A stretch of 64,000 nt of DNA from an uncultured Acidobacteriota bacterium (GTDB lineage: Bacteria > Acidobacteriota > UBA6911): NCBI GenBank assembly GCA_963827655.1, contig CAWHCF010000025.1, positions 1-64,000 of the forward strand. The letters are read 5' to 3'. The translations under genes and the position numbers were made by a program. Each line of letters starts with the position of its first letter. Positions within the stretch are counted from its first letter, which is position 1. A model generated the notes under the pieces. The model was given only the letters and a program-made list of their open reading frames with translations, was not told the DNA's origin and did no database searches. This document shows positions 20,213-54,590 of this stretch, in pieces.

Positions 20213-20541
20213 ATCCCTCGCTCTGGCTTGGATGACAAATGACAAATGACCAATCGAGACAGGAATTCGAAAGAGACTGGAGCGCGAAGCGGTGGCCGGA
20301 GTTGCAAGCTGTCGTCGGGGATGATCTGGAGAGACCTTGAGCCGTGCACAAGCTCATCCTGGGTGGCTATCGCCGCTCGACGCTGACTGACGCGATCCGA
20401 TTGCAGAGAGTCTCTCGACAAGAGCGGTTCGGCGTACCGAGGTTTACGTGGTTGAACGCGTCAAAGAATTCGAACGCAAGATTGTCCTTCTGATGAAACG
20501 AAGAAGTTGACCACACCACTCTTCAGTGTAAGGATACCGCG

Positions 20542-28522: not shown

Positions 28523-29201
28523 CTACATCAAGTGTAATCCGCACTCCTGTCCCTGGTGCGAGGTTCCGGCAAAACGGCCCGCGCGCTCGAACTGCCCCTG
28601 GCGCCCTCCGCCCGCCCTTACCCTTCCCTGCGTCGTGCAGGGTTTGCACCCGAGCGAGGGAAAACCCGCGTTGTAAAGCGGATGATTGCTCAGGCTATTC
28701 TGTTCGATGTATTCCCAGACGTCTGCGTTGGTCCAGAATGCAATCGGATTCACCTTCGCGATCCGGCCCGGCTCGAGTAAACGGGTGTTTTTGCGATGTT
28801 CGGTTTCATCCCTGCGCAAGCCCGTGATCCAGGCATCGTAGTTAACCACCACGCTCTCGATCGCCGGGATTTTCATCTCGCAGCACTTGTACTGATCATT
28901 CTTGATGAAAGAATCGCCATATTCGGCATCGATCTTCCTGCGGGCATCTTCCGAGGGTCGAAGCCAGCGAAATCTCATGCCGGTTTCCCGGACGAGCTCC
29001 TCGGCGAAATTCAGTGTTTCAGGGAACTCGAAGCCGGTGTCGATTCCATAAGAATTCCATGTCCGGTTTTACCTGCAGCGCCAAGTCGACGACGACTCTC
29101 GAGTCCTTGCCAAAAGAGCAGGCAACAAAGATCCGGGGATATTTTTCAGCCGCATGCTGGATGATGAGACGTGAGATTTCAACTTTATCGTCAAGATTCA
29201 T
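28523..29201 (-). CDS. cysH: APS/PAPS reductase (Fe-S APS-reductase type); frameshifted
   Basis: ACSFGKDS, IDTGFEFPET, KCC, WITGLRR, SLGCKPCT and ECGLH. CC plus CxxC indicates the [4Fe-4S] type. Confidence 0.9.
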
Positions 29202-29272: not shown

Positions 29273-29380
29273 CTAGCTGATACAACAACAGCGTGAAGCG
29301 GTGTGGACTGAAGGATTCACTTCGAAGACACGGGAACGTAAGGACATTCCTGTGTTTTCTGCTGACGCGATAATTATCAT
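29273..29380 (-). CDS. 35-aa Cys-Cys-Cys short ORF (putative leader peptide)
   Basis: GGAGG RBS; ATGA overlap with the sulfite reductase stop; MIIIASAENTGMSLRSRVFEVNPSVHTASRCCCIS*. Confidence 0.6.
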   Translation of the reverse strand: MIIIASAENTGMSLRSRVFEVNPSVHTASRCCCIS

Positions 29381-31518
29381 GCTCGTTTACCTCCAGCTGC
29401 GGCGGCGAGGGGAGCCTCTCGCTCGCCGGAGAAACTTGCGCAGTAACCGAGAAACGTTCGGGCGAGATCCAGTATCTCTCTGGCGCCCGCTTCATCGGCT
29501 TCTCTTCGCTTCAAAGTGTCAAATTGAGACCACAGACTATTCCAGGCGCCGTCCGTCTCCCCCGATAACACGAAGATGTTTTCAAACTCCCAGAAGGCCT
29601 GTTCCGACGTAAAAGGATCCACCAGCCGGTTGTAGAGCGGGACTCTGGCTGCCTGGGCTGCCGCTTCGTACGCGGCAATCGACGCGTGTTCGTATTCATG
29701 GTGGTAGAAGTAGGCTTCACCTTGCGCCAGCCACTCCCAGGCGGCGTCCATAGCCGGGATCTTTTCCGCAACCGTGGATCCCGCGCATTCCCCTTTGATC
29801 CCCTGGCGCACGGCGAACCGTTCGTTTTCGTGTCCCCAGTCCTGATAGAAAGAAGGATCTTCTTCGAACGTGGCGACTCTCTTCAGCGGTTCCAAAAGCT
29901 CCTTCAGACGCTCGTCCCCTATCCGTGCCATGCAGGCGCCGAAATCCTCTTCGTCCTGCCGTTCTTTCTGGAACAAGTCCAGGAGAGCCTCGATCACGGC
30001 GACACCATTCTTGGCCGGAAACCTTCCAAGGATTCGGCCAATCTCTGCATCGTCGAGGTTCACCTTTCCGCCCAGAAACAAAAGATAAGCGGGAACCGTT
30101 CGCCCATCCTGCGAAAGCGCCGCAGCGTGAAACCCGATGTCGGCGACGGAGTGCTGGGCACAGCCATTGGGGCAGCCGGAGATCTTGATCTTCAGCGAGC
30201 GGGCGAGCTCGCGATATGGCGCCAGATTGCCCTCCAAAGCTTCTGAGATCGTGCTTCCCAGACCTTTGGCCGAGGCGATCCCGAGGCGGCAAGTATCGGA
30301 TCCGGGGCAGGTCGTGACGTCGGTTATGGTTTCAGCCCCACTTTCCGCCAGGCCCAAATCGGCGAGCGCGGAGTGAAGATCAGGAAGGTCCTGTTCTCTC
30401 ACCCAGGGAAGATAGAGGTTCTGACCGATTGAAATCCGCAACTGGCCGGCGGAGAACCGGCGTACCACCTGGGCCAGACTTCTGGCCTGCTCTGCCGGCA
30501 GATCTCCCAGCTTCATCCGCACGTGCACGCCGCGCAACCGCGGGTTCTTGTGCGGGATGACCGAATCGCGAACCCACTGCTGAAAGCCGGCCGCCTCGGC
30601 CCGCGGATTCAGAATGTTCAGCTCGGTGGAGGGCGATTCTATTTCGGGCTCCGGGGCGCGCGATTCGTCCAGGTATTCGTCGAGTGAGTCGATGGGGCCT
30701 ACCAGGCGCCGTTCTTCATCGAGCGCCTGGCGAAACGGATCCCATCCCATGGTCTGAATCAAGAACTTCATCCGGGCTTTCATGCGGGCTTTCCGCTCGC
30801 CATATCGATCGAAGAGCCGCAGGACCGAAACCGCGAGATTGAACAGCTGTTCTTCAGGAAGGAACTCCGTGTACAGGTGGCCCAGATGTGGAGCGCCGCC
30901 GAGCCCTCCCCCAAGGTACACTCGGAACCCGCGCCGGTCCTTTGCCTTGCCGTTTCGGATCCGCGCCAGGAAACCTATATCGTGAATTCTCAGGCCCGAA
31001 TGATCTTCCGCGCACCCCTCGAAGGTAATCTTGAATTTTCGCCCCAGGTTCTGGTTGTACTTGTTCCGGACCAGGTAGCGGAAAAGCGCTTCCGCGTAGG
31101 GTGAGACGTCGAAGGCTTCCGTGCTCGAGGTTCCCGCCCGATAGCAGGCCGTGATGTTTCGTACGGTATTGCCGCAGGCTTCGCGCGTCGTGATCCCGGC
31201 GTCGGCCAGAAAACGAAGCAGATCCGGAGCCTCTTCAAGCTTCAAGTAGTACAGCTGAACGTCTTCCCGCGTGGTGAAGTGCACAAATCCGCTGCCGTAA
31301 CGGTCGGCAGCATCCGCCAGACGCACTAACTGGTCCGCATTCAGAACGCCGCCCGGAATCTTGATTCGCTGCATCTGGACGCCCTCCTGACGCTGGGCGT
31401 ACGTGCCATAATGCAGGCGCAGCTTCTGCATCTTGACTTCACCGAGTTCTCCAGCCCGGTACTTCTTGATCTGGTCCTCGTAATGATCCAGTTCTTCGAG
31501 GATATAGTCAGGAACCAT
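29377..31518 (-). CDS. Siroheme [4Fe-4S] nitrite/sulfite reductase (assimilatory sulfite reductase by context) with helical C-terminal extension
   Basis: MQRIKIPGG, HFTTRED, EACGNTVRN, RKFKI, TCPGSDTCRLG and KISGCPNGCAQH; directly upstream of cysH. Confidence 0.92.
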   Translation of the reverse strand: MVPDYILEELDHYEDQIKKYRAGELGEVKMQKLRLHYGTYAQRQEGVQMQRIKIPGGVLNADQLVRLADAADRYGSGFVHFTTREDVQLYYLKLEEAPDLLRFLADAGITTREACGNTVRNITACYRAGTSSTEAFDVSPYAEALFRYLVRNKYNQNLGRKFKITFEGCAEDHSGLRIHDIGFLARIRNGKAKDRRGFRVYLGGGLGGAPHLGHLYTEFLPEEQLFNLAVSVLRLFDRYGERKARMKARMKFLIQTMGWDPFRQALDEERRLVGPIDSLDEYLDESRAPEPEIESPSTELNILNPRAEAAGFQQWVRDSVIPHKNPRLRGVHVRMKLGDLPAEQARSLAQVVRRFSAGQLRISIGQNLYLPWVREQDLPDLHSALADLGLAESGAETITDVTTCPGSDTCRLGIASAKGLGSTISEALEGNLAPYRELARSLKIKISGCPNGCAQHSVADIGFHAAALSQDGRTVPAYLLFLGGKVNLDDAEIGRILGRFPAKNGVAVIEALLDLFQKERQDEEDFGACMARIGDERLKELLEPLKRVATFEEDPSFYQDWGHENERFAVRQGIKGECAGSTVAEKIPAMDAAWEWLAQGEAYFYHHEYEHASIAAYEAAAQAARVPLYNRLVDPFTSEQAFWEFENIFVLSGETDGAWNSLWSQFDTLKRREADEAGAREILDLARTFLGYCASFSGEREAPLAAAAGGKRA

Positions 31519-31640
31519 GTCGATTTACGATTGACGATTTACGATTGACGATTGTCTGACGATTGACGATTGACACAACTAGCGCATGGATTGCCGTCAG
31601 GCCCCATTCGTTAACCGTCAATCTTAAATCGTCAATCAAC
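31519..31640. repeat. Heptamer tract (GACGATT/TACGATT)n with inverted partner
   Basis: CGATTTACGATTGACGATTTACGATTGACGATT... at 31521-31574; AACCGTCAATCTTAAATCGTCAATC at about 31613-31637. Confidence 0.85.
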
Positions 31641-31660
31641 ATGAAATCCTTATCACCAAT

Positions 31661-31699
31661 AAAAAAAGCCCCGATTCCGTTTCGGAACCGGGGCTTTTT
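31661..31699 (-). terminator. Intrinsic terminator (attenuator) upstream of the sulfite reductase
   Basis: On the minus strand AGCCCCGGTTCCG-AAA-CGGAATCGGGGCT followed by a T-run. Confidence 0.88.
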
Positions 31700-31729
31700 C
31701 CCCACCTGTTGGTCGTGAGTCTCTGTGCC

Positions 31730-31840
31730 TCACGGACCGTCAGACCGGTTCCGTTGGATAAAGGCCGTACAGATGCACCGACACGCTGCCTGGGTTTTGA
31801 GGTCAACGATTGGGTTCTTACCTGTCACTGCCAGCTCCAT
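31730..31840 (-). CDS. 36-aa Cys-containing attenuator leader peptide
   Basis: MELAVTGKNPIVDLKTQAACRCICTAFIQRNRSDGP*. Contains CGGAACCGG, complementary to the terminator 5' arm. Confidence 0.75.
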   Translation of the reverse strand: MELAVTGKNPIVDLKTQAACRCICTAFIQRNRSDGP

Positions 31841-31872
31841 GTCACCGATCTGTCTAATCTAAACTCGCCGGA

Positions 31873-31902
31873 ACCGTATCAAATACCCGGAGAGCTTGTC
31901 AA
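31873..31902 (-). promoter_or_regulatory. Sigma70-type promoter for the cys leader
   Basis: TTGACA (31897-31902), 18 nt, then TGnTACGGT extended -10 (31873-31878). Confidence 0.55.
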
Positions 31903-32049
31903 GAAAGATCTTACTGTCTTGATCTGCCCGCTGCCTTGGAGGCGGAAGCTTGCTTCGCCTTGTGCGACCACGATTGCACAGCCGAAAAGCAGCCGGGCAA
32001 TACGTTACCTCGTATAAGATGCCCTATCGAAGTCGCCCAAGTCCCCACG

Positions 32050-32207
32050 GTCTCGGCAAAGTCACTGATTCCAAGAATGACAAATGATCAATGACCAATG
32101 ATAGATGACCAATTCCGGATCGAGTGACTCCTCGCTCGATCCGGAATTTGTCATTTATCATTATTTATCATTGGTCATTGGTCATTTGTCATTTGATCAT
32201 TTCGAAG
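32050..32207. repeat. Palindromic heptamer-repeat element, copy 1 (MITE-like)
   Basis: (AATGACA/AATGACC)n-AATTCCGGATCGAG..CTCGATCCGGAATT-(GTCATTT/GTCATTG)n; shares both ends with 48721-48855. Confidence 0.8.
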
Positions 32208-32317
32208 GCGGGATCTTGCTCCCATCCCGGAGGTAGATCGAAAAATTGGAACAGCCGGCAAGACGGAACGTTAGACCCATTAGACGCTCCCATGCAACTC
32301 GTATCACGGAGGCAAGT

Positions 32318-33205
32318 ATGAAAATCTCTTTGTGGAAGGGCAAAGCCAAATGGATAACGCTGGCTGCCCTCCTGGTTATGGTGGTCGTCGTCGCAGTCAC
32401 CGTCGCTCAGACCGAAAGGCCCCGAGGAGCCACCCGGATCTATCTGAATGAGCCCGCTCCATATTTGGGGGTCGAGATCGAAGACGTGACGGCGGAAAAC
32501 ATGTCCTCGTATAAACTGCCCTCGGAGCGCGGAGTGATTGTGCGTTCCGTCGAGAAGGAGAGCCCGGCAGGGTATGCGGACTTGAAGAACAACGACGTCA
32601 TCGTGGAGTATGCAGGCACCCCGGTCTTCTCTGCCGCCCAACTGACCCGCCTGGTATCCGAGACCCCTCCAGGCCGCAAGGTGGATCTGGTCATCTCCCG
32701 CGACGGGGCCAAGATGACTGTTACGGCAAAGATTGCGGAAGGAGACAGACACGGGATTTTTGGGGATAGAGGTCAGGTCAAGATCGCGCCTCGCAGCGGC
32801 TCTTTTGCCGTTCCCGGCGGGCAAATGTTTCGATATTCCTTCCCGGAAGGCAAATTTGATCGGTTTGTCTATCAGGCGGAAAGAGAACGCACCCGGCTGG
32901 GACTCACTCTGGAAGATTTGACCGATCAAATGGGTGAGTTCTTGGCGGTTCCGGGCAAGAAAGGCGCGCTGGTGACGTCCGTTTCCGCAGGGTCGCCCGC
33001 GTCTGCCGCAAACCTCAGAGCCGGGGATGTCATCGTGCGCGCCGACGAGGAGATTGTGGCCGATCCTCGAGATCTGATCCGCGCGGTCGAGCGCAGGGGT
33101 TCGGGCTCAAGAATAGACTTGAAGGTAATTCGAGATAAGAAGGAGATCACGGTCCCGGTCGATCTCCCCGGCGCCGAGAGGAAGACCCGCGGCTACAACC
33201 TTTAA
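32318..33205 (+). CDS. Exported tandem PDZ-domain protein
   Basis: YLGVEIEDVT, SPAGYADLKNNDVIV, RLGLTLEDLT and SPASAANLRAGDVI; no protease domain. Confidence 0.88.
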   Translation: MKISLWKGKAKWITLAALLVMVVVVAVTVAQTERPRGATRIYLNEPAPYLGVEIEDVTAENMSSYKLPSERGVIVRSVEKESPAGYADLKNNDVIVEYAGTPVFSAAQLTRLVSETPPGRKVDLVISRDGAKMTVTAKIAEGDRHGIFGDRGQVKIAPRSGSFAVPGGQMFRYSFPEGKFDRFVYQAERERTRLGLTLEDLTDQMGEFLAVPGKKGALVTSVSAGSPASAANLRAGDVIVRADEEIVADPRDLIRAVERRGSGSRIDLKVIRDKKEITVPVDLPGAERKTRGYNL

Positions 33206-33208
33206 GAG

Positions 33209-34897
33209 TCACTGATTCTTGATCGAATAGATCAGTCCCTGGACCCGGTCGTTCTCCAGTCGCTCGCGCTCCCGCGCGCGCAATTCTTCGTAGCGCTTGA
33301 GGGCCGCCGCCGCGCCGGCCGTATCGCCGCTCTGCCGGCAGAGGCGAACCTGCAGGAAATACCCTTCCGACATCTCGGGATCGAGCTCGAGCGCCCGCCT
33401 AAGGCGCTCCCCGGCGCCGGCAAAATCATTCGCGTCAGCCGCCAGTTTTGCGCGCTGGTAATGTCCCGCCGCCAGCTTGGGATTGAGTTCGAGGGCTTTG
33501 TCCAGGAAGCCGGCAACCCGCGGGTCATCCGTGCGACCGGCCTTCATCAAAGACACCGCCGATTGATAATAAAGCAGGCTATCCCCCGGGCTGAGGGCGA
33601 TCCCCCGGGAAAAGGCATTGACGGCGTCGTCGAACCGCCCGGCTTCGAAATAGGAGTTTCCCAGGTAATGGTAGATCACCGCGTCATTCGGATACCGGAC
33701 CAGCAGTTCACCAAGGGTTTGCTGGGCCTTCTCCATCTGGCCCCGCAGCTGAAATGTCGTACCAAGGGCCAGGCCCAGATTCCGGTTCTGCGGAAAGGCC
33801 TTGACACCCGACACGAAGACTATCTCGGCCAGGTCATAAGTACGGCGCCGGAGCGCCATCAATCCTAAATCGAGGACGTACGATGGGTTCGATGGATCCT
33901 GCCGGATGGCTTTTTGATACGCCTCGAAGGCCTCCTTCGGACGATCGAGCCGGTCATAGCCCTGGCCCAGAAGGTTATCGATTTCCGCGCTCGAGCTGCG
34001 CTCGTCTGCCGCCATTTTCTCGAGCACCGCGATTCCTTCCCGCCACCTCTCTGCCTTGTAGAGCGCAAGGGCGAGGTTGTAATGGGCCGCGTTCCGGTCG
34101 CGATAGGTGCGGGTGGCAATTTCAAGATGCCGGATGGCTTCTTTGAGTTGACCTGATTCGGCAGCCAGGGTTCCGAGATAGAAGTTCGCGGTTCCCTCGT
34201 TCGGGTCGGCGGCCACGGCATCGCGGAAAGACTTGAGCGCGGCGCTGCGTTCTCCCATTTTGAGCGCCGCCAGACCCCGTAAGCTGACCAGCGCAGGAGG
34301 CAGAGAGTTCTTGCGCGCGTAGGCGTCGAGCGTTGCCGAGACCCTGGAGTAATCTCCCTGAAGGAAGTAGGCCGACGCCAGATCGGCAAGCAGGACTGGA
34401 TGGGGATTGATGGCGCGAACTTTTTCCAGATGGCGAACCGCGAGGTCTGTGCTTCCTCGCCTGACGCACACCGCGCCGGCCGCCCGGTGGATTTCCAGCG
34501 GAACGTCGGGAAGCTCAACCAGCTTTTGAAGCCACTTCACGGCCTCCGGCTTGCGCCGTAATTGCAGGCAGGCGTCTACCAGCTCAGGTACGATCGCGGG
34601 ATCGCGGCGATTGAGATCGAAGGCGAGCTCCAGGTGCCGGACCCCTTCCTCCAGCTGGGCCGAGCGGCACAGGGCTGTTCCCAGCAGCGCCTGTAATCTT
34701 CCGGAATCCTTGTGGGACTCCAACCATGGCTTGAGAGAACTGGCAGCAGCGGAGAATTGCCCTTTTTCTATGAGGGCCGCCGCGGAGTTGAGAGCGGCTT
34801 CGAACCGGCCGGAGGGCGACTGAACCGCGGCAAGAGTGCTAAGAATGAGTAAAACAAATTGACGATTGACGATTGACGATTGACGATTGAACTGCAT
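33209..34897 (-). CDS. Tetratricopeptide-repeat protein
   Basis: Multiple TPRs (e.g. YHYLGNSYFEAGRFDDAVNAFSRGIALSP). The N-terminal NRQSSIVNRQ is encoded by a GACGATT repeat, so the start is uncertain. Confidence 0.85.
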   Translation of the reverse strand: MQFNRQSSIVNRQFVLLILSTLAAVQSPSGRFEAALNSAAALIEKGQFSAAASSLKPWLESHKDSGRLQALLGTALCRSAQLEEGVRHLELAFDLNRRDPAIVPELVDACLQLRRKPEAVKWLQKLVELPDVPLEIHRAAGAVCVRRGSTDLAVRHLEKVRAINPHPVLLADLASAYFLQGDYSRVSATLDAYARKNSLPPALVSLRGLAALKMGERSAALKSFRDAVAADPNEGTANFYLGTLAAESGQLKEAIRHLEIATRTYRDRNAAHYNLALALYKAERWREGIAVLEKMAADERSSSAEIDNLLGQGYDRLDRPKEAFEAYQKAIRQDPSNPSYVLDLGLMALRRRTYDLAEIVFVSGVKAFPQNRNLGLALGTTFQLRGQMEKAQQTLGELLVRYPNDAVIYHYLGNSYFEAGRFDDAVNAFSRGIALSPGDSLLYYQSAVSLMKAGRTDDPRVAGFLDKALELNPKLAAGHYQRAKLAADANDFAGAGERLRRALELDPEMSEGYFLQVRLCRQSGDTAGAAAALKRYEELRARERERLENDRVQGLIYSIKNQ

Positions 34898-34971
34898 CGT
34901 CCCCGGTTACCAGCCGACTTGCGTTCGTTGATCATCATTCTCGAGAGATAATCTTGCCACAACTACAATCG

Positions 34972-35334
34972 TCAATCGTCGTCAATAAGTCGTCGGCGGG
35001 CGTAGACTTCGAGGGCCTCTTCCACCCATCGGGCGCATGAGGGCGCGCTGAATTCTATCCGGAGCCGGCTTGCCATCGCCTCCAGTTCGGCTGCTGTCGA
35101 ACGGTAGGGGCGCAAGGCGTTGTAGATGTCGAGAATGACCGCATCCGGAACATGGACGAGTTCGGCCGCCCGGCGGAGATTCTCGGCCAGCTGGCGCCGT
35201 CCGGCGGCATCCGCGATTCCGGCCTGGTGGCGCAGGGTTTCCGGGGCGATGGAGAAATCGGCCATGTCGCCCCACCCGGAGACGACCCGGTCGAGTCGAA
35301 GCTCCTCCAGAGAAACTCCCGTCTTACTCTTCAC
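34972..35334 (-). CDS. pduE: Diol/glycerol dehydratase small subunit
   Basis: IAPETLRHQAGIA..GRRQLAENLRRAAEL..ILDIYNALRPYRST. Confidence 0.9.
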   Translation of the reverse strand: MKSKTGVSLEELRLDRVVSGWGDMADFSIAPETLRHQAGIADAAGRRQLAENLRRAAELVHVPDAVILDIYNALRPYRSTAAELEAMASRLRIEFSAPSCARWVEEALEVYARRRLIDDD

Positions 35335-48720: not shown

Positions 48721-48855
48721 CTTCGAAATGATCAATGACCAGATGACAAATGATCAATGAATCGGACTGCTCGCTCGCCCGGAATTTGTCATCTCTCATC
48801 GATCATTGGTCATATATTCATTTGTCATTCTTGGAATTAGTGACCTTGCCGAGAC
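48721..48855. repeat. Palindromic heptamer-repeat element, copy 2 (inverted relative to copy 1)
   Basis: Reverse complement begins GTCTCGGCAAGGTCACTAATTCCAAGAATGACAAATGA and ends TTGATCATTTCGAAG, as in 32050-32207. Confidence 0.8.
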
Positions 48856-53151: not shown

Positions 53152-54462
53152 ATGAATGAAATAGACCGCAGGAAATTCATCGTAAATGGCGCAGGCGCGG
53201 CGCTGGGATTGTCGGTGCTTGGAAAACGGGGATTCAGCGCCAGTCCCAACGGCACCATCCGTGTAGCCGTCGTCGGCGTGAACGGCCGAGGCACGGACCA
53301 CCTGTCCGGCTTTACTCCTTTGAAGGGAGTCGAAGTAGCGGGCATCTGCGATATCGACGAGAACGTCTTGAACAAGCGGCTGGGCGAGTACGAAACTAAG
53401 AACGGCAAGCGCCCCAAAGGCTATAACGACATGCGCCGCGTCTTCGATGACAAAGAGATCGATGTGGTGAGCTTCGCGACGCCTAACCACTGGCACTCGC
53501 TCGGAACCATCTGGGCCTGCCAGGCAGGAAAGGACGTCTACGTAGAAAAACCACTCTCGCATAATATCTGGGAAGGACGGAAACTGGTGGAGGCCTCCCA
53601 GAAGTACAAACGCATCGTTCAGCACGGCACTCAGTGCCGCAGCAGCCAGGCTCTAATCGAAGCGGTGCAAAAGCTGAACCAGGGCGTCATCGGAAAAGTC
53701 TACATGGCGAAAGGCCTTTGCTATAAATGGCGCGACACCATAGGACGCAAGCCTGAGGCTTCTGTTCCCGCCGGCGTAAACTACGACCAGTGGCTCGGAC
53801 CCGCGCCGGCCCGCCCGTTTTCACCCAATCGGTTTCACTACAACTGGCACTGGCATTGGGATACCGGAAATGGCGATATCGGGAACCAGGGCGTGCACCA
53901 GATGGACATCGCGCGCTGGGGACTGGGAGTCGGTCTTCCGCGGCGAGCGCAAGCCATGGGCGATCATTTCATGTTTGATGACGATCAGGAGACGCCGAAT
54001 ACCCAGATCGCCGCCTTTCATTATCCCGAGCAAAAGAAGATGCTGGTCTTCGAGGTCCGTCACTGGATCAGCAATCCCGAGGACATCGGTGGAGAAGACG
54101 GCAGCAATGCCATTGGGGTTATCTTCTATGGCTCCGAAGGGATCATGATCATTCCCAGCTACACGTCGTATAAGACCTTCCTTGGACGCAAACGGGAACC
54201 CGGACCTGCCGCCAAGGCGGGGGGAGATCACTACGGAAACTTCATCGACGCCGTTCGCAGCCGCAAGACCGAAGATCTGAACGCCAACGCCCTCGAGGGG
54301 CACCTGTCTTCGGCCCTGTGCCACATTGCCAACATTGCTTATCGCACGAAGAAGACGCTCGAATTTGATCCCAAGACGGAGAAGTTCCTTAGCGATTCAG
54401 AGGCGAACACGCTTGCCACGCGAAACTATCGCAAGCCGTTCGTCGTGCCAGACAAAGTCTGA
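53152..54462 (+). CDS. Tat-exported Gfo/Idh/MocA-family oxidoreductase
   Basis: DRRKFI, VVGVNGRG, ATPNHWH, GKDVYVEKP and GNQGVHQMDIARW. Confidence 0.93.
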   Translation: MNEIDRRKFIVNGAGAALGLSVLGKRGFSASPNGTIRVAVVGVNGRGTDHLSGFTPLKGVEVAGICDIDENVLNKRLGEYETKNGKRPKGYNDMRRVFDDKEIDVVSFATPNHWHSLGTIWACQAGKDVYVEKPLSHNIWEGRKLVEASQKYKRIVQHGTQCRSSQALIEAVQKLNQGVIGKVYMAKGLCYKWRDTIGRKPEASVPAGVNYDQWLGPAPARPFSPNRFHYNWHWHWDTGNGDIGNQGVHQMDIARWGLGVGLPRRAQAMGDHFMFDDDQETPNTQIAAFHYPEQKKMLVFEVRHWISNPEDIGGEDGSNAIGVIFYGSEGIMIIPSYTSYKTFLGRKREPGPAAKAGGDHYGNFIDAVRSRKTEDLNANALEGHLSSALCHIANIAYRTKKTLEFDPKTEKFLSDSEANTLATRNYRKPFVVPDKV

Positions 54463-54590
54463 CGATTGACGATTGCACGATTGCGGATTTAAAAAATCTG
54501 GTGGCTGTCGATTTGGCGTGACGATTAGTACTCATGAGTCTTCGAAAAACACACCAATCCGCAATCCGAAATCTGCAATCCGCAATTGAA
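54461..54590. repeat. Inverted heptamer tracts (GACGATT/GCGGATT versus AATCCGC) between convergent genes
   Basis: GACGATTGACGATTGCACGATTGCGGATT ... CAATCCGCAATCCGAAATCTGCAATCCGCAAT. Confidence 0.8.

Follow-up and report, generated by a model that had tools for sequence, protein, structure and literature searches.

The 5' region of a sulfite reductase operon in an uncultured Acidobacteriota bacterium (lineage UBA6911) very probably contains a ribosome-mediated leader-peptide transcription attenuator, which would sense charged tRNA-Cys and control the reductase together with the cysH gene that follows it. The element is located on the minus strand of a stretch of 64,000 nucleotides (nt), hereafter the window (GenBank assembly GCA_963827655.1, contig CAWHCF010000025.1, positions 1 to 64,000). 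As judged from its sequence and from that of related loci, the leader most likely turns the operon on only when cysteine is low. The intergenic region 31519-32245, which separates the reductase gene (31518..29377, minus strand) from a divergent gene encoding a PDZ-domain protein (32246..33205, plus strand), contains the following parts, given in the order in which they would be transcribed:

31896..31901, minus strand: -35 hexamer TTGACA (exact), read in the sequence
31872..31877, minus strand: -10-like hexamer TACGGT (TAnnnT), 18 nt past the -35 hexamer, from the sequence and the relatives
31730..31840, minus strand: leader open reading frame (ORF) that opens with ATG and has 36 codons followed by TGA, peptide MELAVTGKNPIVDLKTQAACRCICTAFIQRNRSDGP, from ORF reading, with short ORFs carrying a run of cysteine (Cys) codons likewise placed in relatives
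31769..31783, minus strand: Cys codons 20, 22 and 24 (TGT, TGC, TGT), pattern C-R-C-I-C, read in the sequence
31745..31753, minus strand: 5' arm of the antiterminator, CGGAACCGG, codons R30-N31-R32, complementary to 31691-31683, from the sequence and RNAalifold
31711..31738, minus strand: nested hairpin, GGTCCGTGAG (31738-31729) with CTCACGACC (31719-31711) and one bulged C, from folds
31661..31699, minus strand: intrinsic terminator made of an A5 tract, a G+C-rich stem of 12 base pairs (bp), an AAA loop and a U7 tract, from the terminator scan, folds and relatives

The three Cys codons occupy positions 31783-31781 (codon 20), 31777-31775 (codon 22) and 31771-31769 (codon 24), and the CxCxC pattern that they form is common to the closest leader subclass among the related loci (L001, L005, L044, L045 and L058). 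The antiterminator arm starts 15 nt past the last of them, and the leader's stop codon (31732-31730) falls within the 5' arm of the nested stem. The terminator, which was recovered by the terminator scan and whose hairpin has an energy of about -22 to -27 kcal/mol, is composed of the A5 tract (31699-31695), the 5' arm (31694-31683), the loop (31682-31680), the 3' arm (31679-31668) and the T7 tract (31667-31661); its 5' arm holds CCGGTTCCG, the exact 9-nt complement of the antiterminator arm. With a divergent PDZ-domain gene upstream, there is no gene for this terminator to close, and it sits in a 5' leader. When compared to shuffled sequences, the leader folded with z = -5.3 (226 nt) and z = -4.7 (116 nt).

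To evaluate the conservation of these parts, we computed on related loci the sequence elements, their spacing and the covariation of two helices, that of the antiterminator and that of the terminator. A genome scan with the reductase returned 80 loci, with relatives 56-72% identical. Their titles, taken as deposited, mostly name Acidobacteriota, Blastocatellia and Pyrinomonadaceae, and in some cases Gemmatimonadales, Heliomicrobium/Heliobacteriaceae/Clostridia, Balneolaceae or Gammaproteobacteria. The comparison set consisted of 73 upstream regions, namely 72 loci plus the window, in each of which 400 nt or more precede the reductase start. Within 500 nt upstream of the reductase, 56 of the 73 regions carried on the sense strand a short ORF with 3 or more Cys among 7 codons; the antisense strand gave 7 such regions, and dinucleotide shuffles gave 5.8 on average and 10 at most. 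Raising the threshold to at least 4 Cys in 7 codons left 47 regions on the sense strand, none of the 73 on the antisense strand and a shuffle mean of 0.5. Under a strict filter, which accepted Cys-run ORFs of up to 100 codons in their full context with the stop 40-500 nt upstream, the short ORF was present in 54/73 regions, and 52 of these also had an intrinsic terminator no more than 260 nt past the last Cys codon.

A covariance model was trained on 39 leaders, with the window among its training rows, and recovered two further leaders missed by the length filter (L011 and L039), bringing the regions with ORF and terminator directly upstream of the reductase to 54/73. On the window, which belongs to its training set, the model gave a single full-length match (31783-31656, 72.4 bits, E ~1e-16); no second full-length copy was found in the window or in the flanks of the loci. 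In the remaining 19 regions the reductase mostly lies within a longer string of genes on the same strand, and in 7 of them a Cys-run ORF and a terminator were found at the head of the string, for a total of 61/73. Five of these operon-head leaders come from records titled Gemmatimonadales or Gemmatimonadota (L006, L048, L057, L059 and L065), the other two being L035 and L066. As a separate observation on the deposited titles, eleven records named Heliomicrobium, Heliobacteriaceae, Clostridia or Gammaproteobacteria (L005, L020, L022-L025, L027, L030, L047, L073 and L074) are metagenome-assembled genomes (MAGs) whose reductase and leader are of the same class as those of the Blastocatellia records, and their titles may misstate the true lineage.

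The promoter is conserved as well. In 34 of the 52 leaders the motif TTGACA-N16-18-TAnnnT was present at a distance of 70-166 nt ahead of the last Cys codon; the antisense strand had it in 3/52, and the shuffles in 0.1 on average. The conserved -10 element ends ~31 nt ahead of the leader ATG, a position implying a short 5' untranslated region (UTR) and hence an mRNA that is not leaderless. In the window, transcription would start near 31865, with a 5' UTR of ~25 nt ahead of the short ORF. An upstream copy, CGGTTCCGG (31876-31868), paired with the antiterminator arm in the centroid fold; as it shares positions with the conserved -10 hexamer, and would thus probably lie upstream of the transcription start, it was not accepted as a partner in the regulation.

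The distances between the parts follow the reading frame. In the main class, which includes 39 leaders and the window among them, the AAC of the arm, counted from the first base of the last Cys codon, lies at 21 nt in 22 leaders, at 15 nt in 6 and at 12 nt in 3; the few other offsets are first-match artefacts of the regular expression, and the alignment puts the arms of L024, L032, L062 and L074 at 21. These offsets (21, 15 and 12) vary by whole codons, which fits a translated frame. The stop codon lies 36-54 nt past the last Cys codon in 38 of the 39 leaders, and is thus inside the loop closed by the antiterminator helix. In the short classes the last Cys codon is 61-86 nt from the 5' end of the terminator, and the leader stop mostly 19-36 nt from the terminator 5' arm. 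A ribosome covers ~12 nt past its A-site codon; with a footprint of this size, a ribosome stalled at any of the Cys codons would leave the antiterminator arm free.

At the RNA level, the antiterminator helix was 90.6% paired in the alignment of the 39 sequences. At one of its pairs we counted GC in 26, AU in 9 and GU in 4 sequences, and the same position of the terminator 5' arm pairs with the terminator 3' arm as CG in 22 and UA in 12. This shared position covaries with both of its partners, meaning that three segments change together. The terminator helix was 89.7% paired in the 39 leaders, with double changes at six pairs; every shuffle stayed below its covariation score, and every slid control far below it. 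When the leaders were cut ahead of the terminator 3' arm, RNAalifold predicted the antiterminator helix (8 bp) and nothing else. The folds of single sequences gave the same picture in 15 leaders, in which removal of the 3' arm led to the antiterminator and the nested hairpin, and the full sequence to the terminator. When the 3' arm was left out and a ribosome was set at the last Cys codon, the terminator 5' arm formed 5 bp or more with upstream RNA in the minimum-energy fold of 45/52 leaders, and of 35/39 in the main class.

Terminator and antiterminator alternatives are also a hallmark of riboswitches, and UGU-rich runs could in principle bind a protein; it was therefore considered whether a ligand or an RNA-binding protein acting on UGU repeats controls the antiterminator, the ORF being incidental. 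However, no conserved aptamer-like structure emerged besides the antiterminator helix, and what the leaders have in common are in-frame Cys codons (CxCxC, mixed TGT/TGC) rather than a UGU repeat, with the spacing from Cys run to arm shifting in multiples of three. In addition, Rfam returned no family at gathering thresholds over the whole window. In the region 31300-32300, searched at E up to 10, it gave only chance-level matches and a sub-threshold match to Thr_leader (RF00506; 27.3 bits, compared to a gathering score of 55), itself a leader-peptide family; no other leader family and no S-box/SAM riboswitch or T-box was among the matches. We consider control by a protein or a ligand very unlikely.

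It could also be argued that the conserved product is the peptide itself, namely a functional Cys-rich micropeptide, for instance metal- or redox-active, co-expressed with the operon and followed by a hairpin serving as leaky terminator or stabiliser, with no Cys sensing. In fact, the open frame with its Cys clusters is conserved, and within some subclades the peptides have further motifs in common besides Cys. On the other hand, across the classes only the Cys run is common, while the length and the other sequence vary freely, and the leader peptides are conserved neither outside this run nor outside the stretch for which the RNA arm codes. That arm is the source of the recurrent N-R (or D-R) dipeptide, which is lost in leaders with different arms and in three members (L019, L020 and L038) that read the arm in a different frame; in these three it is the RNA sequence, and not the dipeptide, that is kept. 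Moreover, a micropeptide leaves the complementarity between arm and terminator, and their covariation, unexplained, and we regard it as extremely unlikely.

Attenuation by a ribosome at the Cys codons accounts for these observations, and from the computed elements we infer the transcription start, a translated leader, ribosome stalling and a kinetic competition between two RNA folds. Transcription would begin ~25 nt ahead of the 36-codon leader ORF. When Cys-tRNA(Cys) is scarce, the ribosome would stall at Cys codon 20, 22 or 24, its footprint ending short of the arm CGGAACCGG; the nested hairpin could then fold and bring the arm beside the newly made CCGGUUCCG, and the two would pair before the 3' arm of the terminator is transcribed, allowing RNA polymerase to read through into the operon. 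When Cys-tRNA is ample, the ribosome would pass through the arm up to the stop codon inside the nested hairpin; an unimpeded ribosome would thus block the long-range antiterminator, the local G+C-rich hairpin and the U7 tract would form, and transcription would end at about 31661.

Several observations weigh against this interpretation. The energy of the arm duplex in the window is just z = -2.0 against mononucleotide shuffles, with a median of -1.6 over the 52 leaders; the decisive support for a non-chance origin comes from the comparative evidence. The window leader has only three Cys codons, and these are not adjacent. In the window sequence no Shine-Dalgarno motif precedes the leader ATG, and the reductase gene is likewise without one. 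The sigma-70 scan gave 0 promoters in the window under its criteria. No leader was found in the available sequence of 12/73 regions, 4 of which have less than 2.3 kb upstream, and 3/52 leaders have no in-frame ATG ahead of the Cys run. Thermodynamics favours the terminator fold even if a ribosome occupies the Cys codons, so that the switch must be kinetic. The hairpin corresponding to the 1:2 (anti-antiterminator) hairpin of trp was 50% paired, with no covariation, and no better than shuffles. Pairing of the nucleotides just past the Cys codons with the arm was rejected as a candidate 1:2 hairpin because it was unsupported by pair counts; short and variable hairpins of this type appeared in some single-sequence folds, with a clear one just in the class labelled Gemmatimonadales. 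Finally, the exact pairs of the nested stem of the window were 44% paired on the 39-sequence MAFFT alignment; in the relatives the nested hairpin is present in single-sequence folds and is not alignable across subclasses.

A further point against concerns the state with ample cysteine, in which a ribosome terminating at the leader stop codon would, in the window, cover just ~3 nt of the arm. Most relatives have their stop 27-33 nt beyond the arm, and there the ribosome would cover none of it. For this reason the target of the terminating ribosome is more likely the nested hairpin inside the antiterminator helix, which it would occupy. A side observation concerns L039 (3790-3928), in which the stop TAA stands immediately ahead of the arm GGGAACCGG; here, unlike in most relatives, the terminating ribosome would cover the arm in a trp-like manner.

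These results can be compared to a preliminary description of the leader made from the window sequence alone, all the listed features of which are present at their coordinates, as verified on the sequence, the ORF list and the folds. This applies to the promoter too, the hexamers having been found both in the window and in the relatives, though with no match from the sigma-70 scan. The proposal of a trp/his-type attenuator with Cys codons agrees with conservation, spacing, covariation and the folds of nascent RNA, as far as these can be read from sequence. The two computational checks that had been suggested, a search for Cys-rich short ORFs and terminators upstream of orthologous reductases and the folding of the alternative structures, gave the counts and the exclusive folds reported above, and the lack of conservation of the short ORF, indicated as a possible refutation, was not observed. 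As for the mechanism, that stalling frees the antiterminator agrees with the folds with the ribosome at the last Cys codon; that full translation masks the arm holds just loosely, considering the few nucleotides that would be covered at the stop.

Between the terminator and the reductase start, the 5' UTR of the window carries a further long hairpin:

31521..31648, minus strand: inverted repeat made of heptamer repeats, within the 5' UTR, past the terminator and ahead of the reductase start codon, from folds

It is composed of CGATTGA-like 7-nt units, its arms (31529-31553 and 31613-31637) are 92% complementary, and it folds at -54 kcal/mol (z = -4.4) with the reductase AUG in its base. This raised the alternative that the Cys short ORF controls translation, either by means of this hairpin or through Rho-dependent polarity, as in mycobacteria, where polycysteine short ORFs act on translation and not on termination (bioRxiv 10.1101/834739). 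A structure of such stability, placed after the terminator and embedding the start codon of the window, would suit this mode of control. Nevertheless, a strong canonical intrinsic terminator with its U tract follows the short ORF in 54/73 regions, and the spacer from terminator to start codon is 57-230 nt long in relatives, the shorter ones leaving little room for such a hairpin. Furthermore, the heptamer hairpin belongs to a dispersed repeat family found elsewhere in the window too, and probably does not form part of the attenuator but is one more dispersed element. Translational control in place of attenuation is thus very unlikely indeed; a translational layer could be added on top of it.

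The repeat family itself was noted at other intergenic sites of the window as dispersed palindromic elements with tandem heptamers (AATGACC-like and GATTGAC-like), at 32076-32202, 34857-34888 with 34968-34990, 54457-54474, 20231-20255 and 48742-48814. The copy at 32076-32202 flanks a central hairpin of 17 bp (32111-32148), and an 18-nt probe for these elements gave 10-11 matches, compared to ~0.1 expected by chance. They may be MITE- or REP-like.

A difference in codon usage was observed between leaders and reductase genes. The Cys codons of the leaders are TGT in 221 cases and TGC in 68 (76% TGT), and those of the reductase genes of the same loci TGT in 124 and TGC in 366 (25% TGT). It is known that tRNA-Cys reads TGT through wobble pairing and that the rare codons of the leu leader are a precedent for the tuning of sensitivity; the preference for UGU in the leaders may have a similar tuning role.

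The gene content and the neighbours, with a convergent outer-membrane protein gene past cysH, define an operon consisting of the leader, the sulfite reductase and cysH:

29377..31518, minus strand: gene 1, sirohaem-[4Fe-4S] sulfite/nitrite reductase of NirA/SirA type, 713 amino acids, from Pfam, NCBIfam and a structure match
28523..29201, minus strand: gene 2, cysH, phosphoadenosine phosphosulfate (PAPS)/adenosine phosphosulfate (APS) reductase, in two frames, from family matches

The reductase is made of two NIR_SIR and two NIR_SIR_ferr modules (Pfam). Its top NCBIfam match is the NirA family, with a score below the model cut-off, and its closest solved structure is 1zj8, NirA of M. tuberculosis, which we take to be a sulfite reductase. 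On the basis of the cysH neighbour and of the Cys leader, the enzyme would act on sulfite rather than nitrite. The frame of cysH is interrupted by a frameshift near 29040-29068, reflecting either a sequencing/assembly error or a pseudogene. The reductase also has a C-terminal extension of ~165 residues (~547-713; 29377-29880, minus strand), for which no Pfam family was found even at E up to 10; it extends beyond the point at which the solved NirA/SiR structures stop, and it is kept in related loci, where the tblastn matches reach residue ~697. A second short ORF with Cys codons (29380..29273, minus strand; 35 codons, ...RCCCIS), whose start codon overlaps the stop of the reductase (ATGA) and which ends 70 nt ahead of cysH, was judged to be probably due to chance: any Cys-cluster ORF was found at that place in 7/73 regions, none of them similar. 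None of the other short ORFs with Cys clusters in the window is followed by a terminator.

The same layout was recognised with arms unrelated in sequence. In one class (L016, L018, L049 and L080) GAGCGG pairs with CCGCTC; in another (L035 and L066) AGAGCCUUUAGUGG pairs with the terminator arm; and in the five loci titled Gemmatimonadales, GGGAGCGG faces GCCCGCUUCCC, a match made by eye from the sequence and not scored. At least three classes thus share a Cys run, an arm 12-21 nt downstream, a nested hairpin with the stop codon and a terminator, and unrelated arms under one design suggest repeated invention or rapid turnover. It is likely, in our opinion, that a large undescribed set of terminator-based Cys attenuators, in at least three sequence-unrelated classes with one design, heads the sulfate-assimilation operons of MAGs labelled Blastocatellia/Pyrinomonadaceae, Gemmatimonadales and Balneolaceae. 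The same device recurs in dozens of soil Acidobacteria, where it is seemingly undescribed, and Cys attenuation would probably be the main control of sulfur assimilation in these phyla, replacing CysB, CymR or S-box. The leader classes would offer a natural set of convergent designs, in which the position of the stop codon and the nested hairpin replace the 1:2 hairpin of trp, and the element could be used as a compact Cys-responsive switch and as a marker to distinguish sulfite from nitrite reductase operons in MAGs.

To our knowledge, next to nothing has been reported on the regulation of sulfur assimilation in Acidobacteriota and their soil neighbours. A Cys attenuator with a canonical terminator would fill a gap, as the earlier Cys leaders are either terminator-less or translational (Actinobacteria) or predicted for cysS (Rhodobacterales), and it would be the first classical Cys leader with an intrinsic terminator for the assimilation pathway itself. 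In agreement with the preliminary description, which knew of no such element in this lineage, our search of the literature, with subscription-only papers and supplements outside its scope, found no Cys attenuator for Acidobacteriota, Gemmatimonadota or before a sulfite reductase. Acidobacteria appear solely in the statistics of leader-gene distances in PMC4833913, and regulatory Cys codons solely in the mycobacterial legends of PMC13236596.

Among the Cys leaders known so far, those of Actinobacteria are described as leader peptides without terminators (Seliverstov et al. 2005, PMC1262725). In mycobacteria, according to Canestrari et al. (bioRxiv 10.1101/834739), the short ORFs with polycysteine are leaderless and act by pairing of the poly-Cys tract with a downstream Shine-Dalgarno sequence, and cysteine attenuation mediated by an upstream ORF had, per the authors, not been previously described. 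Our leaders resemble the actinobacterial and mycobacterial ones in having runs of Cys codons before genes for cysteine or sulfur assimilation, with sensing of Cys-tRNA by stalling proposed or shown, and differ from them in the canonical terminator-antiterminator and in the conserved promoter ~31 nt ahead of the ATG. In fact, the window leader is not leaderless, it contains a terminator, and the reductase start is 142 nt further on.

A closer case is the uORFC-8-2 motif upstream of cysS in Rhodobacterales, a predicted ribosome-mediated attenuator (Brewer et al. 2021, PMC8632094). It shares with our leaders the conserved Cys codons and a terminator stem with a terminal U run. Unlike them, it controls the gene of the Cys-tRNA synthetase, has two tandem Cys codons inside the first stem and is confined to one alphaproteobacterial order, with no sign of a sequence relationship.

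The likeness is greatest to the classical attenuators of Proteobacteria (trp, his, leu, thr, pheA and ilv). In both cases, the leader ORF is rich in codons for the end product and the first gene is preceded by a terminator whose 5' arm can pair alternatively upstream in a mutually exclusive antiterminator; the spacing from codons to arm is such that a stalled ribosome would leave the upstream segment free, and the leader stop codon falls inside the region enclosed by the antiterminator. On the other hand, here cysteine would be the sensed amino acid, the operon is one for sulfate assimilation, the hosts are soil bacteria of the Acidobacteriota type and no Rfam leader family includes the element. 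Moreover, instead of a supported 1:2 hairpin over the regulatory codons, it is the nested hairpin carrying the stop codon that appears to take the ribosome-sensitive role.

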